A stretch of 64,000 nt of DNA, from the NCBI GenBank assembly GCA_016187465.1, contig JACPJQ010000007.1:127818-191817 (forward strand), read 5' to 3'. The first letter of the stretch is position 1, and each line of letters begins with the position of its first letter. The notes beneath the pieces were generated by a model that did no database searches, was not told where the DNA came from, and saw nothing but the letters and a program-made list of their open reading frames with translations. Source of the stretch: Candidatus Woesearchaeota archaeon. GTDB taxonomy: Archaea; Nanobdellota; Nanobdellia; Woesearchaeales; GW2011-AR4. Below, one piece after another: positions 2,898 through 50,711 of this stretch. The translations under genes were made by a program, and so were the position numbers.

Positions 2898-3839
2898 TCA
2901 AACAAATTTTCCTTCTTTCATTATCAAAGCGCCGTCAGCATAAATTGTCGGCTTTTTGATTACAAAATCAACATGGAATGGCACATCAACTTTGCCGCCA
3001 AAATGCTTGTTGTTGCCGAAGGCTATGTGGCAAGTTCCTGCCACTTTTTCGTCTTCCAGAACATTGCCTGTTATTTTTGCCCTGTAATTTGTGCCGATGC
3101 CAAGCTCTGCAACATTCCTGTATAACTCATTTTTTAGTAATTTTTTGAACTGATTTGCAGTTTTTCCGCCATTCGCACTTGTTATAAAGCCGTCCTCAAC
3201 AGTTATTTTAATATTTTTATCAACTTTCCCCAAACCGCCAACGCTCGCATCCACAATAATTTTGCCATTTGTTTTTCCTTCAAGTGGGGCAATGAATATC
3301 TCACCTCCGGGTAAATTGCCAAAAGCACGCTTTTTATTATATATGGCTCCATCATCACTTATCCATTTTCTATTCTTAATTTCAAATTCCACTTTTGTAC
3401 CGAGTTTTGTTGTTATTTTTATATTGGATTTATTTTTCAATTTTGATATTAGTCTTTCATTGATTGTTTTTATTTTATTAAAATTAATATTTAATGTCCT
3501 TTGCATCGTGTCTTTTGTAATACCAGGCATGCTTGCTATTCTAGCGCCATTTTTGATTGCATTCTCTCTAGCTCTTGTATGACTCAAAGATTTTGTTGTT
3601 GGCATTAAAATCACATCATGCTTTAGCATTTCATCTGCGATTTTTTGTGGAGGTTCTTCTCCATGAGCTTTTGGTATGGTTGTTAGAATTATTTTTGAAT
3701 TTTTAGTAATTTTTAATGAGTTTTTGTATAATGCATCTCCTATTGATTTTAGTTTAGAGTCCGTAACAATAAGGCAGCTTTCATTTTTCTTTAGATTCAT
3801 GCACTGCTTTAGGATTATTTTGCATGATTTATCGAGCAT
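2898..3839 (-). CDS. M29-family (thermophilic) aminopeptidase
   Basis: GNLPGGEIFIAP, AELGIGTN, EDEKVAGTCHIAFG and HVDFV metal-ligand motifs. Confidence 0.88.
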   Translation of the reverse strand: MLDKSCKIILKQCMNLKKNESCLIVTDSKLKSIGDALYKNSLKITKNSKIILTTIPKAHGEEPPQKIADEMLKHDVILMPTTKSLSHTRARENAIKNGARIASMPGITKDTMQRTLNINFNKIKTINERLISKLKNKSNIKITTKLGTKVEFEIKNRKWISDDGAIYNKKRAFGNLPGGEIFIAPLEGKTNGKIIVDASVGGLGKVDKNIKITVEDGFITSANGGKTANQFKKLLKNELYRNVAELGIGTNYRAKITGNVLEDEKVAGTCHIAFGNNKHFGGKVDVPFHVDFVIKKPTIYADGALIMKEGKFV

Positions 3840-3840
3840 T

Positions 3841-5619
3841 CTAAGCCACAAACTCCCCATCTCTTAATATCCAATGCTTATTCCCTTTATTATCAATCCC
3901 ATAAACATCAAGCTTCTGCCTCGGGGCATTGAACACAATATCCATATGGTACTCTGTGCTCCTGTCAGGCTCAAATCCAGAGCCAAGGGCGATATGCATC
4001 ATCTTTGCTATTTTTTCGTTGACAATAAGATATTCGCACAACCTCGCCTTTGGATTTGTGTTGATCGCAAATTCCCCTATCCTCTCAAAGTTCTTCTTTT
4101 TCAAATCAATTATTTCCTGCGGCAAACTTTTGTTTTTTTCTGATTCAAGCAGCATTTTCATTGCATCATTTTTCCTTTTATTTATTTTCTTAATAATTTC
4201 ATTTGGGCCGTCTATGATTTTATAAGTGCTGCCGTAGCACTCTACAACAATGGGATTTTTATCATTTAATGCATAGCTCTGGTCAACGTGAACAACAATA
4301 TCTCCGACAAATATGCCATGTATGTACTCCGGTGTCACAAAAGCCTCTCCACCGGGAATATTGCCCATGCATCCAGCTTTTATCCCAGTCATCTTTAGGT
4401 AATCCCTGTTTATTTTTTCCCGCACATCAGTGTCAGAGCGCCTGACCCACCTTCTCGAGCCGTCTTCCTTGACTAATCCGACCTCAAGTTTTGCTGTATA
4501 TTTTTCTTTAAGCCTGCCTTCAACATAGATAACGTCGCACTTGTCCATTTTGTCCTTCAATTTTTGGTTTCTGGCCCTTATGTCGCTCCAGTCCACCAAG
4601 TTTGTTTCTATGAATATATCTATTGGAATTGTCTCTGTAAAAGCCACTCTTGCAACTGGGTCCCTCTCGTCATATTTTGTTTGCGGGTAGAAATCAAGCT
4701 TGTAGATAATCTGGCCTGGAGTGAGCCATCTTGTCTTTTTGTTTGGGGAGGGATAGCCGATAATCTCACCAAAAAGGTGCTTGCCAGGATAACCTTTTGC
4801 GCTTATCGAAAATGATAAATCAATTGGCTTTAGCCTGTCAAGATTTAATAGCTTTGAAAGTTTTTTGTATTTTTTAAATATCTCTTCATCAATCTCCTTT
4901 GACAGCTCGCATCCGAGCAAGGTAGCCCTTAAATCCGATATCCTCTCGCTTTTCTCAAGCATGGAAGCTCTGAATGTATAAGCATTCATTATCGGCTCTG
5001 CTGTTTTTTTTGCAGTCTGCGTCATTGCCCATATTATCGAATAAGAGTCAAGATAGTCTTCCAAAGGATGTCCAATTAAATTCTGAGCAGGTATCAGCGA
5101 AAAGCCAATACCTACTCTCTCACCTTTTTTTAAAGCATAAACATCTCTCCAAAGGATTTCAGCGGTTTTCATTAACTCGTCCATTCTGTAATCCTTAAAC
5201 CATTCTGTATGAAAGGGCAGTTCCAAAGAGCCCGTAAACTTATTTGATTTTGCTTCAAGTACAAATTCAGGTTTTTTGAATAATTTTTTAAATTCGCCTT
5301 TTGCTTTTTTGTCAACCTCTTCAATAAAATCTGCCAAGGATTCTGTTTTTTCATTTTTTATGCCTTTTTCAAGCTCTTCAAAATTATTCCAAACGTCTTT
5401 TAACGCTTCCAATCCTTCTGATTTTTTATTTACGCCAATGCAGCTTGCGTCTGCCCCGAGCTCATGCAAAGCCCTTGACAAAGGAGCGGTGGAATAGAAA
5501 GCTTCCTTGTTATTTATGTCAAAAATTATGAAGAAAGTTTTACCTTTTGCTTTCTTGACATGATTCTTGTAGTCTTTTACAGCGGAACTAAATGATTTTT
5601 CTTTGTATTTCATTTTCAA
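3841..5619 (-). CDS. long M29-family aminopeptidase-like protein
   Basis: C-terminal GNIPGGEAF, GEFAINTN, NEKIAKMMHIALG and HMDIV motifs; about 270 aa extra at the N-terminus. Confidence 0.8.
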   Translation of the reverse strand: MKMKYKEKSFSSAVKDYKNHVKKAKGKTFFIIFDINNKEAFYSTAPLSRALHELGADASCIGVNKKSEGLEALKDVWNNFEELEKGIKNEKTESLADFIEEVDKKAKGEFKKLFKKPEFVLEAKSNKFTGSLELPFHTEWFKDYRMDELMKTAEILWRDVYALKKGERVGIGFSLIPAQNLIGHPLEDYLDSYSIIWAMTQTAKKTAEPIMNAYTFRASMLEKSERISDLRATLLGCELSKEIDEEIFKKYKKLSKLLNLDRLKPIDLSFSISAKGYPGKHLFGEIIGYPSPNKKTRWLTPGQIIYKLDFYPQTKYDERDPVARVAFTETIPIDIFIETNLVDWSDIRARNQKLKDKMDKCDVIYVEGRLKEKYTAKLEVGLVKEDGSRRWVRRSDTDVREKINRDYLKMTGIKAGCMGNIPGGEAFVTPEYIHGIFVGDIVVHVDQSYALNDKNPIVVECYGSTYKIIDGPNEIIKKINKRKNDAMKMLLESEKNKSLPQEIIDLKKKNFERIGEFAINTNPKARLCEYLIVNEKIAKMMHIALGSGFEPDRSTEYHMDIVFNAPRQKLDVYGIDNKGNKHWILRDGEFVA

Positions 5620-35420: not shown

Positions 35421-35657
35421 ATGGGATTAAAACAAATAAGCCTTACAATGCCTGAAAACCTTTTACAGGCATCTAGGGAATATTCTGAGCAGTTTGGCTA
35501 CAAAAATGTGCAGGAGTTCATTTTGGATTTGGTAAGGGACAATGTTATGCTGAAGAATATCGAGAGGTACAGGAAAATAGATGGAAGAATGAAAAAAGGG
35601 CTTGGTGTCAAAAAATTCAGCCAAAAAGGCGCTGTTAAATACATTAAAGAGCTGTAA
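35421..35657 (+). CDS. RHH-type antitoxin
   Basis: KQISLTMPENLL..NVQEFI pattern; directly upstream of a RelE-like toxin. Confidence 0.75.
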   Translation: MGLKQISLTMPENLLQASREYSEQFGYKNVQEFILDLVRDNVMLKNIERYRKIDGRMKKGLGVKKFSQKGAVKYIKEL

Positions 35658-35658
35658 G

Positions 35659-35913
35659 ATGTCTTATTCTATAGAGTTCAGTACTGAGTTTGATAAATCC
35701 ATGAAAAAGCTGAAGAAAAGGGATAAAATTATATTTGAGCAAATACAAAAAAAGCTTATTGAAATCGTTGAAAATCCTGAACATTACAAACCATTGAGGA
35801 ACGTCTTGGCAGGATACAGAAGGCTGCATTTTGGAAGTTTTGTGCTGATTTATACAACAGAAGGAAATGTTGTCAGGGTTATATCTTTGGACCATCATGA
35901 TAGGGCTTATTAG
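35659..35913 (+). CDS. RelE/ParE-family toxin
   Basis: YSIEFSTEF.K..KKL..YKPLR..LAGYRRLHFGSFVLIY..HHDRAY. Confidence 0.88.
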   Translation: MSYSIEFSTEFDKSMKKLKKRDKIIFEQIQKKLIEIVENPEHYKPLRNVLAGYRRLHFGSFVLIYTTEGNVVRVISLDHHDRAY

Positions 35914-36893: not shown

Positions 36894-38027
36894 ATGCAGC
36901 AGTATAATGTAAAAGACGCAAAGAGGCATGAATCTGCGCATGACAGGAAAGTGAAGGAGTTAGAGGAAGAGCTCTCAACTACAAAGTACAACAAGAAAAC
37001 CCAGGGCCATATAGGATTGGTGAAAGCCAAGCTCGCAAAAATAAAGGAGGAATTCCAAAGAAAATCCTCGGCAAAAGGCAAGGGCGAGGGATTCACTGTC
37101 AGGAGGACAGGGGACGCAACTATTATAATGGTCGGCTTTCCAAGCGTTGGAAAATCGACTTTGCTGAACGCAATCACAAATGCAAACTCCCCTGTAGGAG
37201 CTTATGCTTTCACTACATTAACCTGCATTCCGGGATTATTAGAATACAACCATGCAAAAATACAGGTTCTTGACGTGCCCGGGATTGTGGAAGGCGCTGC
37301 AACAGGAAGGGGCAGAGGAAGGGAAGTTCTTGCCTGCGCGCAAAGCGCAGATCTTGTCATCGTCTTGCTTGATGTATTCGACCCAAGGCATGTTGAAGTG
37401 GTCAAAAATGAGATTTACGAAACTGGATTGAGGATGAACCAGAAGCCTCCTCAAGTGAGCATCAGCAGGAAGCCAAGAGGCGGAATTGATGTTGGCCTGA
37501 CTGTTAAACTGACAAGATTGAATGAAGAAACCATAAAATCCATACTTAAAGAATTTAGATTGGAGAACTGCAGCATTGTGATAAGGGAAGACATAACTGA
37601 CGACCAGCTGATTGATGTGATAGAAGGCAATAAAAAATACGTTCCAGCAATAGTTGTCCTGAACAAGATAGACATGATCGATGCAAAGGAGCTTGAAAAA
37701 ATAAAAGCAATTGTAAAGCCTGACATCTGCGTTTCAGCTGAAAACAAGGAAAACACAGAAGAATTGAAAGAGCTGATTTTCAGGAAGCTTGATTTCATAA
37801 GGATTTACTGCAAGGAAGCCGGAAAAAAGGCTGATATGGAAGTGCCGCTGATAATGAGAAGAGGCAATACTCTAAGGGATGTCTGCATCAAGCTGCACAA
37901 GGACTTTGTCTCGAAGTTCAGGTTTGCAAGGGTTTGGGGCAGATCTGCAAGATTTCCCGGGATGGTTTTAAGGAAGCTTGAGCATACTGTGCAGGATAAT
38001 GACATTGTTGAAGTGCACGTGAGTTAG
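36894..38027 (+). CDS. DRG/OBG-family GTPase with TGS domain
   Basis: GFPSVGKSTLL, AYAFTT, DVPG, NKID, C-terminal TGS. Confidence 0.94.
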   Translation: MQQYNVKDAKRHESAHDRKVKELEEELSTTKYNKKTQGHIGLVKAKLAKIKEEFQRKSSAKGKGEGFTVRRTGDATIIMVGFPSVGKSTLLNAITNANSPVGAYAFTTLTCIPGLLEYNHAKIQVLDVPGIVEGAATGRGRGREVLACAQSADLVIVLLDVFDPRHVEVVKNEIYETGLRMNQKPPQVSISRKPRGGIDVGLTVKLTRLNEETIKSILKEFRLENCSIVIREDITDDQLIDVIEGNKKYVPAIVVLNKIDMIDAKELEKIKAIVKPDICVSAENKENTEELKELIFRKLDFIRIYCKEAGKKADMEVPLIMRRGNTLRDVCIKLHKDFVSKFRFARVWGRSARFPGMVLRKLEHTVQDNDIVEVHVS

Positions 38028-38611
38028 ATAAGATATCTTTGCTCTGCTCCCGCATACATGAATGTTGCGATTTGTAATGGTATGTTTGTTACCATCAGTA
38101 AACTTCCCGTACTTGTATTTCTAAGCTTTTCCCTGACCATTATAAGTTCCAAGTTTATTCTTTCATAGCCTTTCTCTACTGAAGTGGAATCCTGAGATAA
38201 TAATACTGCAAATCGTTTTGGTTTTATTCTAAACAGTCCCAAACTATTGATATTATAAAATGGAGGCATTTGAGGTTTCAATGCATCCGGCCTTATCCTC
38301 TTTCCATTAAGGCTTTCTAAACTGTTCAGATAGTCTTCCAATGGCCCTAGTATTGGTTTAGTTAATGCATAAACTGAAAACCTGCATTTCTCTCCATTTC
38401 CAATCAACTCTCGCTTAATTTTCCATCCGTCATATTCAACAGTATGATTTTCAGAAGCTTCAAAAAGCTGTGTTATTTCCATGGAAGGTTTTTCTAATTC
38501 TATTTGATCATATAGTAGTTCCAATGGTATTTCCTTTCTTTCAAATCCTGTTATATAGAGTAGACTATATTTCTCCAATTCTCTCAACTTCAATGCCGCT
38601 TCAATTTTCAT
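38024..38611 (-). CDS. hypothetical protein
   Basis: 195 aa ORF convergent with the GTPase gene; no motif recognised. Confidence 0.6.
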   Translation of the reverse strand: MKIEAALKLRELEKYSLLYITGFERKEIPLELLYDQIELEKPSMEITQLFEASENHTVEYDGWKIKRELIGNGEKCRFSVYALTKPILGPLEDYLNSLESLNGKRIRPDALKPQMPPFYNINSLGLFRIKPKRFAVLLSQDSTSVEKGYERINLELIMVREKLRNTSTGSLLMVTNIPLQIATFMYAGAEQRYLI

Positions 38612-38658
38612 AGCTTATGGATGAATGTTGATGTAAATAAAAACATTTCCCCGCAACA

Positions 38659-38666
38659 TTTAAATA
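38659..38666 (+). promoter_or_regulatory. TATA box of the aromatic operon leader
   Basis: TTTAAATA ending 28 nt before the leader ATG, which fits a near-leaderless transcript. Confidence 0.6.
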
Positions 38667-38694
38667 CCAATTCATCTTACCAACTGAAACTAAA

Positions 38695-38790
38695 ATGCGT
38701 CGAATAGAAAACTTAATGGCACAGATTGGATTTGCTTTCTACAGGTTGTTTTCCAGCTTTAAGTACTTCTTTTTTTATTTTAAGTTTTGA
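38695..38790 (+). CDS. putative Phe/Tyr-rich leader peptide (MRRIENLMAQIGFAFYRLFSSFKYFFFYFKF)
   Basis: 9 Phe and 3 Tyr in the last 19 codons; lies between the TATA box and the aro-tyr-phe-pheST operon. Confidence 0.8.
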   Translation: MRRIENLMAQIGFAFYRLFSSFKYFFFYFKF

Positions 38791-38819
38791 TTAGCTTCTG
38801 TTCTAAAAGAACGCTAATC
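38789..38819 (+). promoter_or_regulatory. hairpin overlapping the leader stop codon
   Basis: GATTAGC-ttct-GTTCT-aaa-AGAAC-GCTAATC. Confidence 0.6.
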
Positions 38820-39003
38820 TCATTGTCCTGACATGATAAAAAACTAAACCGATAAAATGATGAAAAACAGCATTAATGAAAAATGGATGTATGGGTGAGG
38901 TAAAAATCAATGGCAGAAGATTTTTACCGAGCGCAAATTAATGTTCCGAAGGAACCGATTGAAAATATGATTTAATCAAAAATATTATGGCAAAGGTGGG
39001 AAA

Positions 39004-40017
39004 ATGATTGTGGTGATGAAAAAAAACGCAACAGAGCATCAGATAGAAAAAGTTGTTGAAAAAATAAAGGAAAGCGGGCTAAAGGCGCACTTGTCAAAAG
39101 GAGAGATTGTGACAATAATCGGAATTATAGGCGATGAAAGGAAAGTCCCTGAATCGCAGATAAGGGCGATTGAAGGCGTGGAAAAGCTGATGCCCATTCT
39201 GGCTCCTTACAAGCTGGCAAGCAGGGACTTTAAGCCCGACAACACCGTTATAAGCGTTGACGGAGTCAAAATAGGCTCAAATGAAGTTGTCATTATGGCA
39301 GGGCCATGCTCTGTTGAAAGCAAAGAGCAGATTATAGAAACAGCAAAAGCAATTAAAAAGGCAGGCGCGCATATACTGAGAGGAGGAGCTTTCAAGCCAA
39401 GGACATCCCCATATTCCTTTCAGGGCTTGGGAGAGGAAGGCCTGAAATTCCTGAAAGAAGCAAAGGAAGAAACCGGAATGCCAATAATAACAGAGGTTAT
39501 GGACACAAGGAATGTTGCCTTAGTTTGCAAATACGCTGACATTCTCCAGATAGGGGCAAGAAACATGCAGAACTATGACCTGCTGAAAGAAGTTGGAAAA
39601 TGCAAGCACCCTGTTTTGCTGAAAAGAGGCATGTCAGCAACAATAAATGAATGGCTGATGAGCGCGGAATACATAATGGCTGAAGGCAACCATAACGTCA
39701 TTTTATGCGAAAGGGGAATAAGGACATTTGAAACTGCCACAAGAAATACTCTTGATCTTAATGCAGTGCCTGCTGTCAAGGAATTAACTCATTTGCCTGT
39801 TGTTGTTGACCCCAGCCACGGCACAGGCAGGTACACTTTAGTAAGCCCAATGAGCAAGGCTGCTGTTGCTGCAGGAGCAGACGGCCTGATTATAGAGGTC
39901 CATACAAATCCGGAAAAATCTGTCAGCGATGCAGACCAGACAATAAGCGTCAGTAGATTTGAGAAGTTGATGAATGAATTAAGATTAATAGCGAATGTCA
40001 TAGGAAGAAAAGTATAG
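39004..40017 (+). CDS. aroF: DAHP synthase, type I-beta with N-terminal regulatory domain
   Basis: [36 protein letters not shown]; N-terminal ferredoxin-like domain. Confidence 0.95.
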
Positions 40018-40020
40018 AAA

Positions 40021-41109
40021 ATGGAAACTGTTGGGGTTCAATTAAAGGAAGAAACAGATAATTCATACGACATTCTGATAGACGGTGGTTTATTCAATAA
40101 TTTGGCTGCAGAGTTAAAAAACAAGCCCTTAGGAAATGCGTATGCAATAATAACAGATTCCAATGTCGGCAAAATTTACGGGAAAAAATTGGTTAAGAAT
40201 TTTCAAAATAAAAATTTGCATGCGCATTTAATCACTTTTCCTGCAGGAGAAAAAAGCAAGAACAGAAAAATAAAGGAAAAAATAGAGAATGATATGCTCA
40301 AGCTGGCTTTTGGCAGAGACACTTGCGTCATTGCCCTTGGAGGAGGTGTTGCGGGGGACGTTGCTGGTTTTGTGGCAGCAACTTACATGAGAGGAATTCC
40401 ATACATACAAGTTCCAACTAGTCTGCTGGCGATGGTTGACAGCTCGATTGGCGGAAAGGTAGGAGTTGATACAGAATACGCAAAAAATTCCATAGGTGCT
40501 TTTTACCAGCCTAAAAAGGTCATTATAGACTTGAATTTCCTGAAAACCCTGCCAAAAGAGGAGTTGGCAAATGGCTTGGCTGAAATAATAAAGCACGCTT
40601 TGATTAAAAACAAGGACTTTTTCCATTTTCTTGAGAAGAATATTGATGATATGCTTAAACTTGATTTTGAATTGCTAAAAAAAACCATCAAAAAGAGCTG
40701 CGAGATAAAAGCTTCTGTTGTAATGCAAGATGAAAAAGAAAAAGGCATGAGAAGAATCCTCAATTACGGCCATACAATAGGGCATGCTATTGAGTCTGCA
40801 CTGAATTACGGAATAAGCCACGGAAATGCAATTGCAATCGGCATGTCGTACGCCGCAAAGCTGTCCGCAAAACTCGGATTTTTGCATGAAGGCTCTGTGA
40901 TAAGGCAGAATAACCTGCTTGGGCATATTGGATTGCCGCACAGGCTGAGCCATCACAAACTAAAGCCTAAAAAAATTCTGGAATATGCGCAATATGACAA
41001 AAAGATAATAAATGGAAGAATAAATTTTATTTTGCTTAAATCCATAGGTGATGCTTTTATTTCTGACAAAGTAACGATAGACGACATTAAAAAAATCATG
41101 GAAGAATAA
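40021..41109 (+). CDS. aroB: 3-dehydroquinate synthase (bacterial type)
   Basis: [30 protein letters not shown]. Confidence 0.95.
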
Positions 41110-41111
41110 AA

Positions 41112-42565
41112 ATGCTTGCGGCAGTGATAACGGCAAAGGACATTGAAAATGCTGTTGTGGACATAAAGAAGGCTGATAACGCTGATTTAGTTGAGCTAAG
41201 GCTGGATTATTTGAGAGAAATGGAACTATCAAAATTGAATATGATGGTTAAACGCTGCAAAAAACCCGTTATCGTGACAAACAGAAAAAAGGATGAAGGC
41301 GGATTTTTTAATGGAGATGAAGACGAAAGAATTCAACTGCTGACAAAAGCTCTGGAGTTTGGAGCGGACTACATCGATATTGAATATTCATCGGACAAAA
41401 AACAGCTGAAAAAAATAATCAAAAACAGACAATATACAAAGATGATTGTTTCTTATCATAATTTAAAAGAAACGCCAGATAACATCAGTGTAGTATACAA
41501 AAACATAAAAAAATTAAACCCGGACATAATAAAGATTGTGACAGATGCCAATTCTGTTACTGATAACTTTAAAATTTTTAATTTGATAAAAACGGCAAAT
41601 AAGGAGAAAAAAGGAATAATAGCTTTTTGCACTGGTTCCTATGGGCAATTTAGCAGTACGCCTCAACGGGAAAAGGCAAGGAATCTGCACCAGGGCAGCT
41701 TACAATAGACGAGCTTAACAATATTTACAGAATTAAAAAATTGAATAAAAAAACTAAGATTGCTGGACTAGTAGGCAATCCTGTCGATCATTCATGGTCG
41801 CATGTAATGCACAATGCGGCATTTGACGCGTTAAACATAAATGCTGCTTACTTGAAATTCAAAGTTGATAAACTGGAAGAATTCATTGATTATTTTAGGA
41901 GTTTGAATATTATGGGGTTCAGCGTGACCATTCCACACAAGATGGAAGCGATGAAATATTTAGATAAAATTGACAATAAAGCAAAAAAAATAGGGGCTGT
42001 GAATACCATTGTAGCCAGAAACAATAAATTGATTGGCTGTAACACTGATTGTGATGGAGCAGTCAAGGCATTGAAATCAAAAACGAGTTTAAACAGAAAG
42101 AACGCCGTCATTTTGGGGGCGGGAGGGTCGGCACGGGCACTGGCTTACGGTTTAAGTGAGAATGGCGCTAATGTTACTATTTTAAACAGAACAGCTGAAA
42201 AGGCAAAGTCCATTGCAGAAGATTTTGAATGCGGTTACGGCCCACTAAAAGATTTAAAAAACATTAAATATGACATATTAATTAATACAACGCCTGTTGG
42301 AATGCACCCGAATGCGGATATCTCCCCAATACCTAAAAATCTTATCAATAAAGGCTCTGTTGTCTTTGACATAGTTTTTAACCCTTATAAAACAAAGCTA
42401 TTGGAATTTGCTGAAAAAAACGGCTGCGCTACAATTCATGGAATAGAGATGCTAATCAATGGCAATGCTTTGCAATTTGAATTATGGACCGGAAAGAATG
42501 CCCCTGTTCAATTAATGAGAAAAAAAGTCATGGATTGTATGAAAAATGCTGGCAATAAAAACTAA
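41112..42565 (+). pseudogene. aroDE: type I dehydroquinase-shikimate dehydrogenase (aroD-aroE) fusion, frameshifted near 41656 (real lesion or assembly error)
   Basis: ELRLD and VSYH..KIV (AroD); the SAPGQ motif lies in the downstream frame, continuous with AroE motifs GNPVDHS, SVTIPHK, NTDC and GAGGSAR. Confidence 0.8.
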
Positions 42566-43802
42566 GAAATTTGTGAATGCAACAATTGAAGCCCCTCCGT
42601 CAAAGAGCTACACCCAGAGGGCTTTGGTGATTGCTGCTTTGGCTAAAGGAAAATCTGTAATAAAAAATCCGCTGTTCAGCGACGACACGTATTATATGAT
42701 TCAGGCTTTGAAAAATTTCGGGGTTAAAATATGGAGAAATGGAAGTAATATTGTTATAAATGGTGCAAACGGCATGTTAAAACAGCCCAAAAGCATCATT
42801 TATGTCGGAAATGCCGGCACTGCAATGCGCTTTCTTGCAACTATTGCGGCAGTTTCAGAAGGCGAAACAACAATAACAGGAGACAAAAGGATGCAGCAAA
42901 GGCCAATTCAGGATTTGCTTGACGCTTTGGGCAGTTTGGGAGTCAGATGTGAAAGCAATAAAGGCTTTCCGCCTATAAAAATCTACGGCGGCTCATTTAA
43001 TGGCGGCAGCATAAAACTAAGCGGAGGCACAAGCAGCCAGTATCTTTCGTCTATTTTGATGTGCGCGCCTTACGCAAATAAAAATGTCACGATAAACTTA
43101 AATGGAAAATTGGCATCAGAACCTTACGTGGACATTACTATTGATGCCATGAAAAAATTCGGAGTCAATGCTAAGTGCATCAATCACAAAAAATTCATTG
43201 TAAAAAACAGCAAAAAATACAAAGCAAAAAATTACAAAATTGAAGGTGATGCGACAAATGCAAGCTACTTCTTTGCAGCAGCTGCGGTCACAAAAGGAAA
43301 AATAATGGTAAAGAATATAAATCCCAACTCCAAACAAGGAGATATAAAGTTTGTTGGCGTGCTTAAGAGAATGGGGTGTGGCGTTAAAAGGGGGAAAAAC
43401 TTCATTCAGGTGGAGGGCCATAGCCTTAAGAGCATAGATGTTGACATGAACGAGATGCCGGATATTGTGCCAACTCTGGCTGTGGCAAGCTTGTTCGCTG
43501 ATTCAACAACTGTAATAAGAAACGCGCCAAACTTAAGGCTTAAGGAAACTGACAGGTTAAAGGCACTGGCGTTTGAATTGAGAAAGATAGGCGCCAATGT
43601 CGAGGAGCTGCAGGACGGGCTGAGAATAAAGAGAAGAAGGCTGCAAAAAGCAATAATTGAAACTTATAATGATCATAGAATAGCTATGAGCTTTGCAGTT
43701 GCCGGGCTGGCCATAAATGGCATAAGGATAAAAAACCCTGCCTGCGTAAGCAAATCATTTCCTGACTTTTGGAAAAAATTTAACGAAATGTGCAAAAAAT
43801 GA
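42546..43802 (+). CDS. aroA: EPSP synthase
   Basis: PSKS, GNAGTAMR, SSQYLS, LRLKETDR, DHRIAM. Confidence 0.96.
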   Translation: MLAIKTKKFVNATIEAPPSKSYTQRALVIAALAKGKSVIKNPLFSDDTYYMIQALKNFGVKIWRNGSNIVINGANGMLKQPKSIIYVGNAGTAMRFLATIAAVSEGETTITGDKRMQQRPIQDLLDALGSLGVRCESNKGFPPIKIYGGSFNGGSIKLSGGTSSQYLSSILMCAPYANKNVTINLNGKLASEPYVDITIDAMKKFGVNAKCINHKKFIVKNSKKYKAKNYKIEGDATNASYFFAAAAVTKGKIMVKNINPNSKQGDIKFVGVLKRMGCGVKRGKNFIQVEGHSLKSIDVDMNEMPDIVPTLAVASLFADSTTVIRNAPNLRLKETDRLKALAFELRKIGANVEELQDGLRIKRRRLQKAIIETYNDHRIAMSFAVAGLAINGIRIKNPACVSKSFPDFWKKFNEMCKK

Positions 43803-44308
43803 ACATAGCGCTTATAGGATTCAGGGGAACGGGCAAAACAACTATAGGAAAATTATTGTCGAAAAAACTTGATAAAAAGCTTATTTCCAGCGATGGGGAG
43901 GTAGAAAAAAGAACGAAGATGAGCATAGCAAAATTTGTGAAAAAACATGGATGGGATAGATTCCGGGAGCTGGAATCAGAGGTTATAGAAGGCATGAGTG
44001 ATCTTGACGAATGCGTCTTTGACACAGGCGGCGGCATTATTATGAGAAATGAGAATATAATAAACTTAAAGAAAAACGGATTGATTGTGCTGCTGACAGC
44101 TGACATAAAGGCAATAACAAGCAGGCTGAGAAACAGCAAAAGGCCTGCCCTGACAAAAAGCAGTTATCTTGATGAAATAAAGGATGTCCTGAATGAACGG
44201 GAAGAAAAATACAAAAAAGCAGCCGATTACTCAATTGACACTTCCAGATTATCGCCAGAAGAGGCATGCGACTTAATAACTCATTTTGTTCAGACGGAGC
44301 TTCAGTAA
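43799..44308 (+). CDS. aroK: shikimate kinase (bacterial/NMP-kinase type)
   Basis: GFRGTGKTT, FRELE, TGGG, RP. Confidence 0.92.
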   Translation: MNIALIGFRGTGKTTIGKLLSKKLDKKLISSDGEVEKRTKMSIAKFVKKHGWDRFRELESEVIEGMSDLDECVFDTGGGIIMRNENIINLKKNGLIVLLTADIKAITSRLRNSKRPALTKSSYLDEIKDVLNEREEKYKKAADYSIDTSRLSPEEACDLITHFVQTELQ

Positions 44309-44309
44309 G

Positions 44310-45392
44310 ATGTCAAATACATTTGGAGCATTGTTCAGGATAACAACATGGGGCGAAAGCCATGGAAAAGCAATAGGGGTTGTTTTAGACGGCTGTCCGG
44401 CTGGCCTGAAAATTAGCGAAGAGGATGTGCAACAAGAGCTCGACAAAAGGGCGCCTGGGCAGAGTGAGATTGTGAGCCCGAGAAAAGAGTCTGACAAGGT
44501 TGAAATCCTTTCAGGAATATTTGAAGGCAAAACAACAGGAATGCCGATATCAATGATCATTTACAATAAGGATGCTGATTCCTCAAAATACGAGAAAATA
44601 AAGCATTTGCTGAGGCCAGGCCATGCTGATTTTACATACCAAGTTAAATATGGATTCAGGGACTACAGGGGAGGCGGCAGGAGCTCTGCAAGAGAAACGG
44701 CTGCGAGGGTTGCTGCAGGGGCTGTTGCAAAAAAATTGCTGTCAAGATTTAATATTATAATTACGGCTTATGTAAAGGAAATTGCCGGAATCAAGGCGAA
44801 TAAGGCTGATTACAAAGAGATTTATAAGAATAATGTCAGATGCCCTGACAAAAATGCCGCAAGGAAAATGGAGCAGGCTATTCTAAAAGCGAAAAATGAA
44901 GGAGACTCTGTCGGAGGAGTGTGCGAGGTTGTGGCGCTAAACGTGCCTGCGGGACTTGGCAAGCCGATCTACAACAAGCTTGAAGCCGACCTTGGCACTG
45001 CGATTCTTGGCATTAATGCTGTCAAGGGTGTTGAGTTTGGCGCTGGATTTGGGCTTGCAAAAATGAAAGGTAGTGTTTCAAATGATGAATTTATTATTAA
45101 AAACAATAAGATTGCAACAAAAACAAACAATCATGGCGGCATTCTTGGTGGAATCTCAACCGGAATGCCAATAGTAATGAGAGCTGTTGTAAAGCCTGCA
45201 TCCAGCATTTTGAAAAAGCAAAAGACAATAAATTACAGGACAATGAAGCAGGAAACAATATCTGTTGAAGGCAGGCACGACCCTGCCACCATTGTAAGAT
45301 TTCCGCCAATTGCAGAGGCTATGACTGCAATTGTGATAGCTGACCATATGATAATGGCTGGAAAGATAAGCCCTGACAAATTGATAAAGTGA
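44310..45392 (+). CDS. aroC: chorismate synthase
   Basis: GESHG, RPGHAD, GGGRSSARET, GRHDP. Confidence 0.96.
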   Translation: MSNTFGALFRITTWGESHGKAIGVVLDGCPAGLKISEEDVQQELDKRAPGQSEIVSPRKESDKVEILSGIFEGKTTGMPISMIIYNKDADSSKYEKIKHLLRPGHADFTYQVKYGFRDYRGGGRSSARETAARVAAGAVAKKLLSRFNIIITAYVKEIAGIKANKADYKEIYKNNVRCPDKNAARKMEQAILKAKNEGDSVGGVCEVVALNVPAGLGKPIYNKLEADLGTAILGINAVKGVEFGAGFGLAKMKGSVSNDEFIIKNNKIATKTNNHGGILGGISTGMPIVMRAVVKPASSILKKQKTINYRTMKQETISVEGRHDPATIVRFPPIAEAMTAIVIADHMIMAGKISPDKLIK

Positions 45393-45399
45393 GTTCTTT

Positions 45400-46239
45400 A
45401 TGAAGAAAGTAACAGTCGGAATAATTGGGGGCACCGGGCAGATGGGGAGTTTTTTCAGGAAGTTTTTTGAAAAGAATGATTGCAGAGTTCTAATTGCGTC
45501 AAGAAAAACAAATTTAAGAATTGAGGACTGCGCAAGGCAAAGCGATATTGTTTTGGTGTCTGTTCCGATAGGCGCAACAGTGAATGTTATAAAAAAAATT
45601 TCTCCGCATATAAACAAAAATTCATTATTAATTGATACGACTTCGATAAAAAAAGGCCCTGTGGAAGCCATGCTTCGCTGCTCAAAATCAGAAGTGATTG
45701 GAATGCATCCTGTTTTTGGGCCAAACATAAGCTCCTTAAAAAACCAGACAATTGTGCTTTGCCCTGCAAGAGGAAAAAAATGGCTAAAATGGATAAGGGA
45801 TATTTTTGAAGGGAATGGCGCTTTAATAAAAATATCGACTCCGGAAAAACATGATGAGATGATGTCTGTAATCCAGGGCTTGAATCATTTCAGCACTTTA
45901 AGCGTTGCTCACGCAATGAAGAGCCTTGGAATAAGAGTTGAAGAAAGCCTCCAGTACACAAGCCCGATATACAAATTGAGGATGGCAATGGTCGGAAGAA
46001 TCCTTAATCAGGATTCAAAACTGTATGCAAATATAGAGATACTGAACCCTAAAAACAAAAAGGCATTGGATGCTTATGTAAAATCCTCGAAAAAACTTCA
46101 GAAGATAATTAAGACTAAGAATACTAAAGAGTTTGTAAAGTACTTTGATGAATGCGCAGAATTCTTCGGCGGCTTTAAGAAAGAAGCCGAAAAGCTCAGC
46201 GATTACCTTATAGAGAAAATGGTGGAAAGGGAAAAATGA
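45400..46239 (+). CDS. tyrA: prephenate dehydrogenase
   Basis: GGTGQMG Rossmann motif, DTTSIK, HPVFGP, HDEMM. Confidence 0.92.
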   Translation: MKKVTVGIIGGTGQMGSFFRKFFEKNDCRVLIASRKTNLRIEDCARQSDIVLVSVPIGATVNVIKKISPHINKNSLLIDTTSIKKGPVEAMLRCSKSEVIGMHPVFGPNISSLKNQTIVLCPARGKKWLKWIRDIFEGNGALIKISTPEKHDEMMSVIQGLNHFSTLSVAHAMKSLGIRVEESLQYTSPIYKLRMAMVGRILNQDSKLYANIEILNPKNKKALDAYVKSSKKLQKIIKTKNTKEFVKYFDECAEFFGGFKKEAEKLSDYLIEKMVEREK

Positions 46240-47045
46240 GGATTGCAACTTTGGGTCCGGAGGGCACTTTCAGCCATGAAGCTGCGCTCAAGTATGACGG
46301 TAAAGCTGATTTGGCGTTCGTCAATACAATCAGGGATGTTTTTGATATGGTTTCAAAAGGCAAAGCTGGTTTAGGCATCGTTCCTATAGAGAATTCAATT
46401 GCAGGCACTGTCGGCCAGACTCTTGATTTCCTGATGCAGTTTTGTTTAAAGATAAAAGCTGAAGAGGTGCTTCCCATTAACCATTATCTTGTAGGATTTG
46501 GCGCGATTGGAGATATTAGGCATATATACATACACCCGCAGACGTTTGAGCAGTGCGAGCTGTTCATCAAAAAAAATATGCCTAAAGCTGAGATGATTCA
46601 GACATCGAGCAACGGCAAATCGGCTGAAATGCTTTCAAAATCCAAAGACAAGTCAAAAGCCGCGATAATACCTAAAATAGCCGTTGATTTTTACAAGCTG
46701 AAGGTGCTAAAAAAAGACGTGCAGGACAACAGGTTCAATGTTACAAGGTTTTTTGCAATATCAAAGGACGACGCCAAAAAGACGGGCTATGACAGGACAA
46801 GCATAGCAGTCTATCCGCAGGTTGACAGGCCCGGCCTGCTTCATGAAATGCTCGGTCATTTTGCGAAGAACGGGATAAACCTTACCAAAATCGAGTCAAG
46901 GCCGTCTAAGGGAAAGCTCGGGGATTATATTTTTTACATTGATTTTCAGGGGCATAAATCAGAAAAGAATGTCGCAGATGCATTAAAAAAACTGGAAGAG
47001 TCTGCATTTGTCACGCTGCTTGGCAGCTATCCGAGGAAATACTGA
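46236..47045 (+). CDS. pheA: prephenate dehydratase with ACT domain
   Basis: LGPEGTFS, PIENS, TRF, INLTKIESRP. Confidence 0.95.
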   Translation: MRIATLGPEGTFSHEAALKYDGKADLAFVNTIRDVFDMVSKGKAGLGIVPIENSIAGTVGQTLDFLMQFCLKIKAEEVLPINHYLVGFGAIGDIRHIYIHPQTFEQCELFIKKNMPKAEMIQTSSNGKSAEMLSKSKDKSKAAIIPKIAVDFYKLKVLKKDVQDNRFNVTRFFAISKDDAKKTGYDRTSIAVYPQVDRPGLLHEMLGHFAKNGINLTKIESRPSKGKLGDYIFYIDFQGHKSEKNVADALKKLEESAFVTLLGSYPRKY

Positions 47046-47049
47046 TACA

Positions 47050-48570
47050 ATGGACATAAAAAAACTTGGAGAGAGCCTTAACCCTGTTGAAAGAAAAGTT
47101 CTGAAGGTTCTGGATAATTTCAGCTCTTTCCATGACATAATGAAAGTGACTGGACTGAAGGATGTCGAGGTTGCAAGGGCATTGCAATGGCTCCAGAATA
47201 AGAATATAATTAAGACAAAAGAAGAGCAGAAGGAGATTGTGTCTCTGGATGAAAACGGCATTAAATATCTGAAGTACGGACTGCCGGAAAAAATATTTTT
47301 GCAGGAAATACAGAAGCCTTTGACGCTGTCTGAGATTGCGCAAAAAACAAAGTTAAGCAACGAGGAGGTAACTGTTTCTTTGGGGGTACTAAAATCAAAA
47401 GCTGCCATTGAGATAGAAAAAGGCAAGGATATCATTATTTCTATCACAGATCATGGCAAGCACTTGCTCAAGCACGGCTTTCTTGAGGAGCAGTTCATAA
47501 AAGAGGATTTCCCAAAAGAATTGAGTGTATTGAACGAGGAAGAAAAGTTTGTTGTTGAAAATTTGAGGAAAAGAAAAAAAATTGTTAAGGTTGAAACTGC
47601 AAAAATAATCAATACAGAGCTTACAGAGACTGGCAAAAAATTAATAAAGGAAAAGATTGAAGAAGGCTTGATAGAAAAAGTGTCTCCGGCTTTGCTCAAA
47701 TCAGGCTCATGGAAAGGCAAGAAATTCAGGCGCTTTGATGTAAAAATAAACGTTCCAATGATATTTGGGGGCAGGAAGCAGCATTACAGAAGATTTCTTG
47801 AGGAAGTGAGGCAGAAATTTGTAAGCCTTGGCTTCAAGGAGATGTCTGGACCTTTGGTTGAGAGCGATTTCTGGGACATGGATGCTCTGTTCATGCCGCA
47901 GTTTCATTCTGCAAGGGACATCCATCAAGGGTATTATATAAAAGAGCCAAAATACGCAAAAGATTTGCCAGAAAGCAAGGTGAAGAACGTAAAATCAGCT
48001 CATGAAAATGGGTTTGGCACCGGAAGCAAAGGCTGGCGCTATGATTTTGACGTCAAGAAAACCCACAGGCACATTTTAAGGACGCATGACACTTCAATTT
48101 CAGCAAGAACCCTTGCTTCTGAGGATCTTGAAATCCCGGGAAAATACTTCCAGATAGCAAGATGCTTCAGATATGATGTTGTTGACGCAACTCATCTGCC
48201 TGATTTCAACCAGGTTGGCGGGTTTGTGATAGAGGAAGGGATAAATTTCGGGCATCTGAAAGCCCTGCTGAAGATGTTTGCCAAGGAATTTGCAGGCGCG
48301 GACGAAGTCAAGGTTGTGCCCAGCTATTTCCCATTCACAGAGCCAAGCGCGCAACTGATGGTCAGGCATCCTCAGCTTGGATGGATAGAGCTGGCAGGGG
48401 CTGGGATTTTCAGGCCTGAGCTTGTGAAGCCGCTGGTTGGAAAGGAAGTGCCTGTAATCGCATGGGGTGTCGGGTTGGACAGACTGGCGATGTTCAAGCT
48501 TGGAATAAGCGACATAAGGCAGCTGTTCTCGCATGACTTAGAGTTTCTGAGAAACGCAAAGGTGGTTTGA
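47050..48570 (+). CDS. pheS: phenylalanyl-tRNA synthetase alpha subunit (archaeal type)
   Basis: ALFMPQFHSARD, FRYD..DATH, YFPFTEPS, GIFRPE. Confidence 0.96.
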   Translation: MDIKKLGESLNPVERKVLKVLDNFSSFHDIMKVTGLKDVEVARALQWLQNKNIIKTKEEQKEIVSLDENGIKYLKYGLPEKIFLQEIQKPLTLSEIAQKTKLSNEEVTVSLGVLKSKAAIEIEKGKDIIISITDHGKHLLKHGFLEEQFIKEDFPKELSVLNEEEKFVVENLRKRKKIVKVETAKIINTELTETGKKLIKEKIEEGLIEKVSPALLKSGSWKGKKFRRFDVKINVPMIFGGRKQHYRRFLEEVRQKFVSLGFKEMSGPLVESDFWDMDALFMPQFHSARDIHQGYYIKEPKYAKDLPESKVKNVKSAHENGFGTGSKGWRYDFDVKKTHRHILRTHDTSISARTLASEDLEIPGKYFQIARCFRYDVVDATHLPDFNQVGGFVIEEGINFGHLKALLKMFAKEFAGADEVKVVPSYFPFTEPSAQLMVRHPQLGWIELAGAGIFRPELVKPLVGKEVPVIAWGVGLDRLAMFKLGISDIRQLFSHDLEFLRNAKVV

Positions 48571-48574
48571 TAGA

Positions 48575-49051
48575 ATGGTCACTAAGAAAAACGAAAGACG
48601 AAATTTAATTAAAGAAGAAAGAAAAAAGTATATAAAATTCTGCCCTAAATGCAACTCTATCGATATTTATCAAGACAAATCTACAATGCAATCGCTTGGT
48701 TATCTGCCAACAAAATATATTTGTAACAATTGTGGTTATTCCTCATTTAATTTTCCAGAAATTGACATTAATGAATTAGATAAACTACATCTCCAAAACA
48801 AGCAAGGAGTGAAAGAATCAAAAAATCAATCTGAATTGATAGATACTTCTTATGGTAAATTCTATGTTAAGGTAATGTGGAAAATAGTTGGACCTATTTT
48901 TTTGGTGTTTGGGTTGATTTATATTTACATTACTATAAGCTCTCATTCCTATGAGGGTTTAGATTTGTTAATAGGAATGATAATTGCAATTCTAGGCACT
49001 ATTATGTGTTATATCACTTTTACACAAAAACAAATGATAAGAATGAAATAA
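48575..49051 (+). CDS. AT-rich zinc-ribbon + two-TM hypothetical protein
   Basis: CPKC..CNNC and two C-terminal hydrophobic helices; sits between pheS and pheT. Confidence 0.7.
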   Translation: MVTKKNERRNLIKEERKKYIKFCPKCNSIDIYQDKSTMQSLGYLPTKYICNNCGYSSFNFPEIDINELDKLHLQNKQGVKESKNQSELIDTSYGKFYVKVMWKIVGPIFLVFGLIYIYITISSHSYEGLDLLIGMIIAILGTIMCYITFTQKQMIRMK

Positions 49052-49052
49052 A

Positions 49053-50711
49053 ATGCCGACAATAACTTTTTCATTGAAGGACTTGCAGCATTTGGTTGGA
49101 AAAAATCTTTCTATAGAAGAAGTTATAGAGCTTGCGCACTGCGGAAAAGGCGATTTTGACAGCTACGACGAGGAAACTGATGAAGCCAAGATTGACTTTG
49201 GAGACACAAATTTGCCTTATTTATGGTCAGCGGAAGGATTCGCAAGGCTGATAAAGGGAATTTTAGGAGTGCAGAAAGGCATTCCGGAAGTAAAAATCAA
49301 TAAAGGCGATTATGAAGTTAGAGTTGACAAGTCTGTTGCCAAGATAAGGCCTTTTATTGCATGCTTTGCCGCAAAGGGGAGGAAAATAGACGAGCATTTG
49401 CTGAAGCAGATCATCCAATTGCAGGAAAAGTTCTGCGAAACATACGGGAGAAAGAGAAGAAAAGTTTCTGTTGGGCTTTACTCCTACAAAAGGCTCAGCT
49501 TTCCCGTGCATTACAGGGCCGTTGACCCAATGTCTGTGGAATTTGTGCCATTGGAGTTCAAAGCCAAGATGAATCTGAGGGATATCCTGGCAGAGCATCC
49601 TAAAGGAAAAGAATATGCTTTTGTTTTGGAAGGCTTTGACAGATACCCCATTCTTGCTGACGACAAAAATGAAATAATGAGCTTCATTCCCATAATAAAT
49701 TCAAACTTTACAGGCAAGCTTGAGATTGATGACGAGAATATATTTTTCGAGGCGACTGGAACAGACGAGGATGCTGTCAATCTGGCTGCAAACATTTTTG
49801 CATACGCTTTGCATGACAGGGGATTCCAGATTTATTCTGCTGAGGTAAGGCATCATGATAGAAAAATTGTTACGCCGCATTTTTTCAATGAAAGCATTGC
49901 TGTAAAAAATGAGCAGATAAAGAATTTGTTTGGATTGGAGCTTAAAGAGAATGAAGTAAAGCATCTGCTTGAGAAGATGCAATATAGCTTCAGCGATTAT
50001 AAAGTTAAGATTCCGCCGTACAGGCTTGATATACTGCATCCATACGATGTTATCGAAGATATCGGCATCGCTTACGGATATGACAAGATTGAAGACCGGG
50101 CTTTGGCAACTTTTACATCAGGCTATGCGATGGAGTTCAATGAGTTTGTCGGCAAGGTAAGGGCAATTGTTGCCGGGCTGGGCTATCAGGAAGTCATGAG
50201 CCCCATATTGACCAACAAAGACTTTCTTTACAATAAGATGAATATTGATGATGCCGGGACTATTGAAATTGAGGAGTGCATGTCAGAGACTTATTCTGCT
50301 GTTAGGAGCTGGGTGCTGCCAAACCTGATGGAGGTTTTTTCCAAGAACAAGCATGTTGAGTTTCCCCAGAAGATTTTTGAGGAAGGCATTGTGAATGTGA
50401 GAAAAAGCGAGGAAATTGCCGAGTTCAGCAGGATCGCAATTGCAAGCTCGCACGAGAATACAAATTATACTGAGATGAGGCAGATGCTTGATTACATTCT
50501 GAGGTGTTTTGGGCTGCAGTGCGACATTGAAGATGCTGAGCACGGCTCTTTTATAGAAGGAAGGTGTGCAAGGGCTGTTGTAAAAGGAAAGAAAGTAGCT
50601 TATTTGGGGGAAATTTCCCCCGATGTATTAACCCGATGGGGCTTGGAGATGCCAGTTGCTGCACTGGAATTGAATTTGAGTGAGCTGTTTGAAATAATTA
50701 AAAAGAAGTAA
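49053..50711 (+). CDS. pheT: phenylalanyl-tRNA synthetase beta subunit (archaeal type)
   Basis: MPTI, QLQEK..GRKR, YRLDILH..DVIEDI.IAYGY. Confidence 0.95.
   Translation: MPTITFSLKDLQHLVGKNLSIEEVIELAHCGKGDFDSYDEETDEAKIDFGDTNLPYLWSAEGFARLIKGILGVQKGIPEVKINKGDYEVRVDKSVAKIRPFIACFAAKGRKIDEHLLKQIIQLQEKFCETYGRKRRKVSVGLYSYKRLSFPVHYRAVDPMSVEFVPLEFKAKMNLRDILAEHPKGKEYAFVLEGFDRYPILADDKNEIMSFIPIINSNFTGKLEIDDENIFFEATGTDEDAVNLAANIFAYALHDRGFQIYSAEVRHHDRKIVTPHFFNESIAVKNEQIKNLFGLELKENEVKHLLEKMQYSFSDYKVKIPPYRLDILHPYDVIEDIGIAYGYDKIEDRALATFTSGYAMEFNEFVGKVRAIVAGLGYQEVMSPILTNKDFLYNKMNIDDAGTIEIEECMSETYSAVRSWVLPNLMEVFSKNKHVEFPQKIFEEGIVNVRKSEEIAEFSRIAIASSHENTNYTEMRQMLDYILRCFGLQCDIEDAEHGSFIEGRCARAVVKGKKVAYLGEISPDVLTRWGLEMPVAALELNLSELFEIIKKK

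Follow-up and report, generated by a model that had tools for sequence, protein, structure and literature searches.

An aromatic leader reading frame in front of the aro-tyrA-pheA-pheST operon of Woesearchaeales: a candidate ribosome-sensed attenuator in Archaea

Leader-peptide attenuation is the textbook proof of physical coupling between transcription and translation in bacteria, and pheL-pheA and pheM-pheST of E. coli are its classical examples among aromatic genes. A related logic operates in the E. coli tna operon, where a ribosome at the end of the tnaC leader masks the entry of the termination factor Rho beside the stop codon; tnaC senses free tryptophan through its nascent peptide and induces a catabolic operon. 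Here we describe a short upstream open reading frame (uORF), rich in Phe and Tyr codons, in front of an operon for aromatic amino acid synthesis in a 64,000-nucleotide stretch of archaeal DNA, referred to as the window (Candidatus Woesearchaeota archaeon, assembly GCA_016187465.1, contig JACPJQ010000007.1, positions 127,818 to 191,817 of the forward strand; source genome G000). An earlier sequence-only reading of the window had proposed that this uORF acts as a ribosome-coupled attenuator of an archaeal type. The locus is the best candidate so far for bacterial-style, ribosome-sensed amino acid control in Archaea. Passages of PMC1262725 treat attenuators of the pheST type, and according to a passage in Blombach et al. 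(2021; PMC8448881), transcription attenuation and antitermination are without a known example in Archaea. In the relevant passages of two archaeal ribosome profiling papers (PMC11456600, PMC10117724), uORFs are addressed in general terms only. No precedent for an archaeal leader-peptide attenuator appeared in a full-text literature search, which left out most subscription journals and supplements.

The uORF, MRRIENLMAQIGFAFYRLFSSFKYFFFYFKF, extends over positions 38695-38790 of the + strand and comprises 31 codons, with a TGA stop at 38788-38790. Phe and Tyr account for 12 of its 19 C-terminal residues, Trp is absent, and the codons TTT, TTC, TAT and TAC are all represented. With aromatic residues in eight of its last ten positions, it ranks first in its own genome among small ORFs upstream of 1588 genes. 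The promoter (38655-38666, +; conserved in alignment A1) is composed of AACA, similar to a transcription factor B recognition element, and the TATA box TTTAAATA (38659-38666). Since the TATA box lies 28 nt 5' of the ATG, the mRNA is predicted to start at or close to the leader itself, i.e. to be leaderless or near-leaderless. The final Phe and Tyr codons form a U-rich tract (38767-38788, +), including a T7 run at 38770-38776 that reads TTC TTT TTT, and this tract may function as an archaeal pause or termination signal. A hairpin of 11 bp, predicted by folding (free energy, dG, -10.9 kcal/mol; 38789-38819, +), has its first base at the second position of the TGA stop. Instead of a U tail, TCATTGTCC comes after it, and CATTGT at 38821-38826 (+) is a case of the motif CAYYGT, found 3' of the hairpin in many lineages. 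The sequence, the ORF list and the translation thus agree with the description of the locus given in the sequence-only reading, including the position of the U-rich stretch.

The operon on the same strand (39004-50711, +) was also identified correctly as one making Phe and Tyr and charging tRNA-Phe. According to Pfam and NCBIfam matches, it consists of aroF, aroB, aroD, aroE, aroA, aroK, aroC, tyrA, pheA, pheS, an ORF of 158 amino acids (aa), and pheT. The first gene, aroF, encodes DAHP synthase (39004-40017, +; Pfam) and is followed by genes for DHQ synthase, DHQ dehydratase, shikimate dehydrogenase, EPSP synthase, shikimate kinase and chorismate synthase. Prephenate dehydrogenase, prephenate dehydratase-ACT, the alpha subunit of phenylalanyl-tRNA synthetase (PheRS), the 158-aa ORF and PheRS beta, ending at 50711, make up the rest. 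The gene order aro-tyrA-pheA-pheS-pheT is also found in relatives.

This arrangement resembles E. coli pheL and pheM in that a short ORF with C-terminal Phe codons, its stop placed beside an RNA structure, precedes genes for Phe biosynthesis and PheRS. Unlike them, the archaeal locus has a TATA promoter and probably a leaderless start, and it is devoid of a GC-rich terminator with a U tail, of a detectable 2:3 antiterminator alternative, and of any Rfam match. A cmscan search of positions 38000-39600 with E values up to 10 returned no leader family, only four unrelated matches below threshold. A consensus scan disclosed no Rho-independent terminator on the + strand between 38500 and 39100, and a sigma-70 promoter scan of the locus gave nothing relevant on that strand. 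As a whole, the region 38680-39010 folds no better than its shuffles (z -1.3). RNAalifold applied to 11 same-genus sequences recovered only a stem internal to the ORF, between A-rich and U-rich stretches, and the stop hairpin, with no alternative partner for the hairpin arms.

To collect same-genus loci, DAHP synthase was searched for in 41 related genomes, and the DNA upstream of it was then scanned. Most of them contain the same uORF, in 12 distinct versions that align codon for codon. Summed over pairs of these versions, the proportion of nonsynonymous differences (pN) is 0.148 and that of synonymous differences (pS) 0.679, a ratio of 0.22. Variable columns at codon positions 1, 2 and 3 number 14, 16 and 26 of 30, respectively. 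Synonymous changes affect Arg, Leu, Ser, Gly, Ala, Phe, Tyr and stop codons, Lys and Arg replace one another, and three versions start with GTG instead of ATG. Retention of T-richness with loss of the frame, which the sequence-only reading had named as evidence against its own proposal, was not observed: both other frames are interrupted by stops in 12 of 12 versions. The pattern of synonymous changes, together with the closed alternative frames, argues for a translated ORF, and the comparison indicates that its frame is under purifying selection. Such a result is what the sequence-only reading had given as support for its proposal, which passes this comparison strongly. One segment departs from this pattern. 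The codons TTC TTT TTT show no synonymous change in 11 of the 12 versions, while other Phe codons vary, which indicates that the T7 run is conserved in itself. The stop hairpin is likewise maintained in the genus (alignment A2), with 95.6% of cells paired and three pairs changed on both sides, a number reached in none of 500 shuffles.

Beyond the genus, 95 of 401 sampled genomes of the order (three of them unpublished and not otherwise used) and 51 of 401 genomes of a phylum sample yielded a DAHP synthase. A leader was defined as a uORF of 8-70 codons, no more than 450 nt upstream, with at least five aromatics among its last ten residues; the thresholds of five in ten and 450 nt were chosen after the first examples had been seen. 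The sequence-only reading had suggested looking for such uORFs in related genomes, and they are present at 46 of 85 archaeal DAHP synthase starts (34 of 62 in the first set and 12 of 23 in the second). When the rule is tightened for the first set, 33 of 62 starts retain a match at six or more aromatics and 21 of 62 at seven or more. The corresponding background among the 1588 genes of G000 is 62 (3.9%) at five or more, 14 (0.9%) at six or more, and 3 (0.2%) at seven or more. Matches are spread over 15 tool-coded families of Woesearchaeales. Leader peptides of different families cannot be aligned except at their aromatic ends (e.g. FYFWQ, FYFYF, YYFSY), and without a function it would be hard to account for their recurring so often with unrelated sequences. 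In other orders of the class, three of four DAHP synthase loci gave no match; at the fourth (L215) the count was reached only by a 12-residue ORF with a TTG start, which we judged unconvincing. In three loci (L193, L194 and L198, from G266, G110 and G274) a tandem pair of DAHP synthase genes stands behind one aromatic leader.

The layout of these leaders was compared over 38 distinct sequences, to which the following counts refer unless another number is given. A TATA-like hexamer ends 24-30 nt before an in-frame ATG in 31 of 38; for comparison, a hexamer of this kind ends within the interval actually searched, 18-32 nt upstream, at 395 of 1324 long-ORF starts in G000 (30%). This makes it probable that the leader is the first ORF on an mRNA that is leaderless or nearly so. 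Leader lengths range across the order from 15 to about 34 codons, and spacers between leader and aroF from 70 to 360 nt. Aromatic codons are concentrated in the last five to eight codons, the stop follows 0-2 codons later, and in many leaders the last codons include T runs of five or longer. In 28 of 38, the start of a hairpin (dG <= -6) falls between -9 and +6 relative to the stop, and the median position of the 3' end is 29 nt past the stop. Within a 53-nt segment at the stop, a minimum free energy (MFE) of -10 kcal/mol or lower was obtained for 64% of 28 leaders and for 7.9% of 682 ordinary gene stops. Hairpins at this stop-adjacent place also occur in other families, where their sequence is quite different. 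The motif CAYYGT occurs within 70 nt past the stop in 15 of 38 leaders, compared with about 4% expected from its genome-wide rate; it is mostly located 25-31 nt past the stop and is often followed by T3-T7.

The closest DAHP synthases from outside the order belong to bacteria (54-63% identity), which suggests that the gene or operon was transferred long ago. Among 68 bacterial loci with DAHP synthases in this range of identity, 10 or 11 have aromatic-rich uORFs (L070, L075, L088, L095, L101, L106, L110, L113, L114, L115). The hosts are six Planctomycetota of the Brocadia type, two Desulfobacterota, two Clostridia/Bacillota and one doubtful member of Peregrinibacteria. As in the archaeal loci, the same type of DAHP synthase is the first gene, and some 170-320 nt upstream of it there is a uORF rich in F, Y and W codons. 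All seven bacterial loci that were folded possess a classic terminator, a GC-rich hairpin of 11-17 bp followed by U8-U9 just before the Shine-Dalgarno sequence (SD). Archaeal loci differ in having an AU-rich or unrelated hairpin that begins at the stop codon, often with CAYYGU, in place of the GC hairpin and U8. By this organization the bacterial loci are cases of classical attenuation; the sensing half is, as far as the compared sequences tell, common to both domains, and the output half is replaced in archaea.

The ORF, the selection on its frame, the conserved layout and the tie to the aromatic pathway are established from sequence comparison. On the same material, the uORF is probably a working leader peptide and the locus a ribosome-sensed attenuator, in which a stalled ribosome would compete with the stop-adjacent hairpin or with a U-rich site. 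Inferred in the following scheme are that the uORF is translated, where its transcript begins, in which direction control acts and what brings about termination. The C-terminal Phe and Tyr codons would report the supply of charged tRNA-Phe and tRNA-Tyr, and physiology requires that starvation should yield read-through. Under scarcity, the ribosome would stall in the last four or so codons, which constitute the only U-rich tract and abut the hairpin. It would then cover the 5' arm of the hairpin together with the U-tract, at a moment when RNA polymerase is about 30 nt further on, slowed at the CAYYGU or other YG/U-rich site. In bacterial expressome structures, 25-31 nt is approximately the closest approach between the ribosome A site and the polymerase active site. 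In the leaders, the CA of CAYYGU, 25-31 nt past the stop, falls beyond the ribosome footprint, and the U-tracts are the stall codons themselves. The stalled ribosome would block termination or cleavage, and polymerase would escape into aroF...pheT, with coupling re-established by the aroF SD. Under plenty, the ribosome would reach the stop and depart, leaving the hairpin and the U-rich RNA exposed, and the transcript would end before the operon, either intrinsically, perhaps assisted by the hairpin, or through aCPSF1/FttA. The invariant T7 run, 34-45 nt past the first F/Y cluster, could provide a synchronising pause.

The logic proposed here would be similar to that of tnaC and Rho, except that aCPSF1/FttA would take the part of Rho and U-rich RNA that of rut; unlike in tnaC, hungry codons would induce a biosynthetic operon. 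Passages of PMC7515710 describe termination by aCPSF1 after U-rich motifs, and passages of PMC3553952 a preference of aCPSF1/FttA for single-stranded CA. The leader is comparable to the termination system outlined there in its U-tracts (the Phe codons), in a single-stranded CA after the hairpin, and in the factor being encoded in the genome: in G000, aCPSF1/FttA maps to C3:173942-175825 (TIGR03675, 906.7 bits, cut-off 580.2). Known archaeal terminators are located at the ends of genes, do without a hairpin and are not known to depend on the ribosome, and in these respects the leader differs from them. In general, the suggestion of the sequence-only reading that the mechanism is of an archaeal type, rather than a hairpin with a U tail, fits what was found, since classic terminators characterize the bacterial loci, are missing from most archaeal ones, and ordinary gene ends in G000 are free of hairpins.

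We have also addressed the distribution of Trp codons among the leaders. The operon type aro-tyrA-pheA-pheST is accompanied by leaders with F and Y codons only. In the same genus, a second operon type, with genes for DAHP synthase, DHQ synthase, a fused AroA-K-D-E, chorismate synthase and chorismate mutase as well as tyrA/pheA, has a leader with F, Y and W codons at its end; in two genomes this operon is located directly downstream of trpEGDCFBA. Leader ends are free of W in 8 of 8 trpE-negative genomes that are at least 90% complete (G000, in which trpE was not detected, G001, G004, G009, G016, G044, G085 and G097), and W-ending leaders are found in trpE-positive genomes or in genomes 79-85% complete. 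On the other side, W-free leaders are also found in many trpE-positive genomes, and a single genus contributes five of the eight trpE-negative ones. The link between leader Trp codons and trpE is therefore weak and only suggestive. As for the fusion gene itself, a 1085-aa EPSP synthase-shikimate kinase-dehydroquinase-shikimate dehydrogenase protein (L041:13793-17050, G018:C11; also in L046 and L040) is an AROM-like fusion in an archaeon.

Regions upstream of trpE contain small reading frames of their own. A tiny conserved uORF was found in 6 of 17 regions (L230, L232, L236, L042, L231 and L239, from G089, G401, G186, G033, G224 and G194). It comprises 8-13 codons (23 in L239) with the motif SDC[PL]W, and its single Trp codon is positioned one or two codons (five in L231) before the stop. 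A TATA box is present 21-32 nt before the ATG, and no hairpin adjoins the stop. The core of this uORF, including ATTGTC, which it has in common with the CAYYGT motif of the aro leaders, is nearly invariant. Having almost no synonymous change, it may work at the RNA or DNA level no less than as a peptide. In the genus of the window, the trp operon of two genomes is preceded by a probably leaderless uORF of 23-27 codons (L040, ~3700-3820, and L041, ~4130-4259; G021 and G018), in which a lone Trp codon is next to last, T6-T7 comes right after the stop, and trpE starts about 20 nt further on. At L238:886-959 (G352), a tRNA-Trp (CCA) gene is located between trpE and a uORF ending in three Trp codons. 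Upstream of trpE in L040, L041, L044 and L045 there is a divergent gene of 220-247 aa without a Pfam match, together with a conserved TGTGNCA-like element beside the trpE TATA box; the two may represent a trp repressor and its operator. We give even chances to a broader reading, in which Woesearchaeales use genuine leader-peptide attenuation in response to amino acids, assembled from archaeal components: a leaderless uORF, Phe codons doubling as a U-tract termination signal, a stop hairpin, CAYYGU about 30 nt on, at which polymerase would be positioned as the ribosome arrives at the stop, and aCPSF1/FttA as the terminator. This reading includes a separate second class at the trp operon, namely a leaderless uORF of 8-9 codons with one Trp codon, which would have the ATTGTC core in common with the aro motif.

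Several observations weigh against attenuation by a ribosome-sensing leader. The hairpin of the window has no U tail, and T5-T8 follows the hairpin in some lineages only (e.g. L011, L135, L158, L206, L214). Ordinary gene ends of G000 show no hairpin before their T-runs (MFE -2.8 compared with -2.6 for shuffles), so that a hairpin-dependent terminator would be unusual for this organism; by the same values, the hairpin is ruled out as its usual terminator. Because there is a single hairpin, and its 5' arm is covered by a stalled and by a terminating ribosome alike, the sign of regulation would rest on kinetics. A ribosome stalled at the F and Y codons of positions 13-22 would not extend far enough to touch the hairpin. 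The counts of leaders are not independent, the genomes being related, and 39 of 85 DAHP synthase starts lack such a uORF within 450 nt; at some of the loci without a match another gene abuts aroF (L006, L010, L014). Furthermore, leaders for other amino acids, which the sequence-only reading had expected, did not turn up. Among 2599 small upstream ORFs of G000 none was convincingly enriched in any single amino acid, and 0 of 27 hisG loci had an upstream ORF with at least three His in eight residues, although the His result is weak because hisG may not head its operon. A candidate leader with three Trp codons on contig C3 was rejected, owing to its overlap with a small AbrB-like gene and its position in front of the gene for a 620-aa membrane protein.

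Other explanations of the uORF were considered as well. Control might be translational, with a stalled uORF ribosome, or reinitiation through a second mini-ORF, governing access to the aroF ribosome-binding site (RBS), and with any effect on transcription secondary (polarity). A comparable layout is described in mycobacteria (bioRxiv 10.1101/834739), where a leaderless first small ORF senses an amino acid by its run of Cys codons and controls the operon behind it. In the window, the aroF SD, GGTGGG (38995-39006, +, with the DAHP synthase ATG; AAGGTGAGAAA-ATG conserved in alignment A1), is strong and conserved. The mini-ORF has four codons plus a stop (38833-38847, +), lies within the conserved block ACATGATAAAAAAC, and is kept in most same-genus loci as an ATG with an in-frame stop 4-6 codons on. 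It is not preceded by an SD, however, and L007 lacks its ATG; the spacers of 70 to 360 nt are also difficult to reconcile with this explanation. In the mycobacterial case a stalled ribosome frees a sequestered RBS, whereas folding of 25 archaeal loci gave no sign of this: in thermodynamic modelling, which is crude, a ribosome on the last codons or on the stop does not consistently raise the accessibility of the SD and AUG, with a clear increase in L009 and L135 only and a decrease in L018. Pairing between the flank of the hairpin 3' arm and the SD was dropped, as L001 and L002 do not co-vary, and pairing of the U-tract with a downstream A-rich block was dropped because the block is not A-rich in L004 and L007. 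On balance, we consider translational attenuation unlikely. A non-coding role, as a DNA operator or a T-rich promoter-proximal element open in one frame by chance, would account for the T7 run invariant in the genus, for the resemblance of CAYYGT and of the block ACATGAT to the promoter's own ACATTT core, and for the related ATTGTC core upstream of trpE. Variation is greatest at third codon positions, contrary to what an operator would show, start and stop codons are retained, the other frames are full of stops, and the aromatic bias is preserved through mixtures of TGG, TAY and TTY rather than mere T-runs, so that this role is barely credible.

It is very unlikely that the ORF encodes a small hydrophobic peptide with a role of its own, in the membrane or in trans, and only happens to share a transcript with the aro operon. 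In favour of such a peptide, its full length, with the non-aromatic N-terminal part, is about as conserved within the genus as a protein would be, and leader peptides acting in trans are known from bacteria (peTrpL; PMC7298713). Across the order, the aromatic C-terminus and the position by a stop-adjacent hairpin are the only peptide-level features to survive, the number of codons varies from 15 to about 34, DAHP synthase is the linked gene in every case, and Trp codons appear with Trp synthesis. The bacterial affinity of the DAHP synthases (54-63%), and the aromatic leaders with real terminators at some of the bacterial loci, would also be compatible with a relic, an operon acquired from bacteria together with a classical attenuator whose leader ORF persists and regulates nothing in archaea. 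Purifying selection on the frame within the genus, the layout with archaeal TATA spacing kept in 15 coded families, and the replacement of the GC-hairpin/U8 terminator by a different, conserved stop-adjacent hairpin all speak against it and make such a relic highly improbable.

Some further features of the window concern the surroundings of the leader. The gene upstream of the uORF (38024-38611) is encoded on the opposite strand, which places the uORF within a divergent promoter region. The spacer between the uORF and aroF is 213 nt long, compared with 70-100 nt in close relatives, owing to a lineage-specific insertion of about 141 nt (38850-38990, +) that contains two hairpins and is absent from close relatives. 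A piece of this insertion, 36-39 nt in length, was found twice on contig C3 (94% and 87% identity), and the insertion may be a small repeat element. The 158-aa ORF between pheS and pheT (48575-49051, +) has a weak match to DUF7838 (E 3e-4, below the cut-off); in several relatives pheS and pheT are directly adjacent. An ORF resembling toxins of the ParE/YafQ family (35602-35913, +) is situated in an AT-rich stretch (GC 0.21-0.27) just upstream of a DRG GTPase gene.

The source genome is a groundwater metagenome-assembled genome of 1.62 Mb in 8 contigs, 93% complete, assigned to Woesearchaeales (DPANN). That the host is an archaeon, as the sequence-only reading held, is evident from the window itself, which has pheT_arch (503 bits, compared with 133 for the bacterial model), uS5_euk_arch, S4e and an archaeal SecY. 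The small-subunit ribosomal RNA of the genome scores 1161 bits on the archaeal model, and DAHP synthases 83-90% identical to that of G000 occur in groundwater records of Candidatus Woesearchaeota archaeon, although a number of TPA bins among these records bear the title uncultured Methanosarcinales.

If leader-peptide attenuation at this locus is true, it would be the first known transcription attenuation in Archaea. A portable cassette of about 170 nt could test whether the position of a ribosome controls archaeal RNA polymerase or FttA, could show what form a conditional archaeal terminator takes, and could show how a regulatory device gets rebuilt after an operon has been transferred from Bacteria. 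For the organisms themselves, the leaders suggest that some DPANN archaea regulate their own synthesis of aromatic amino acids.

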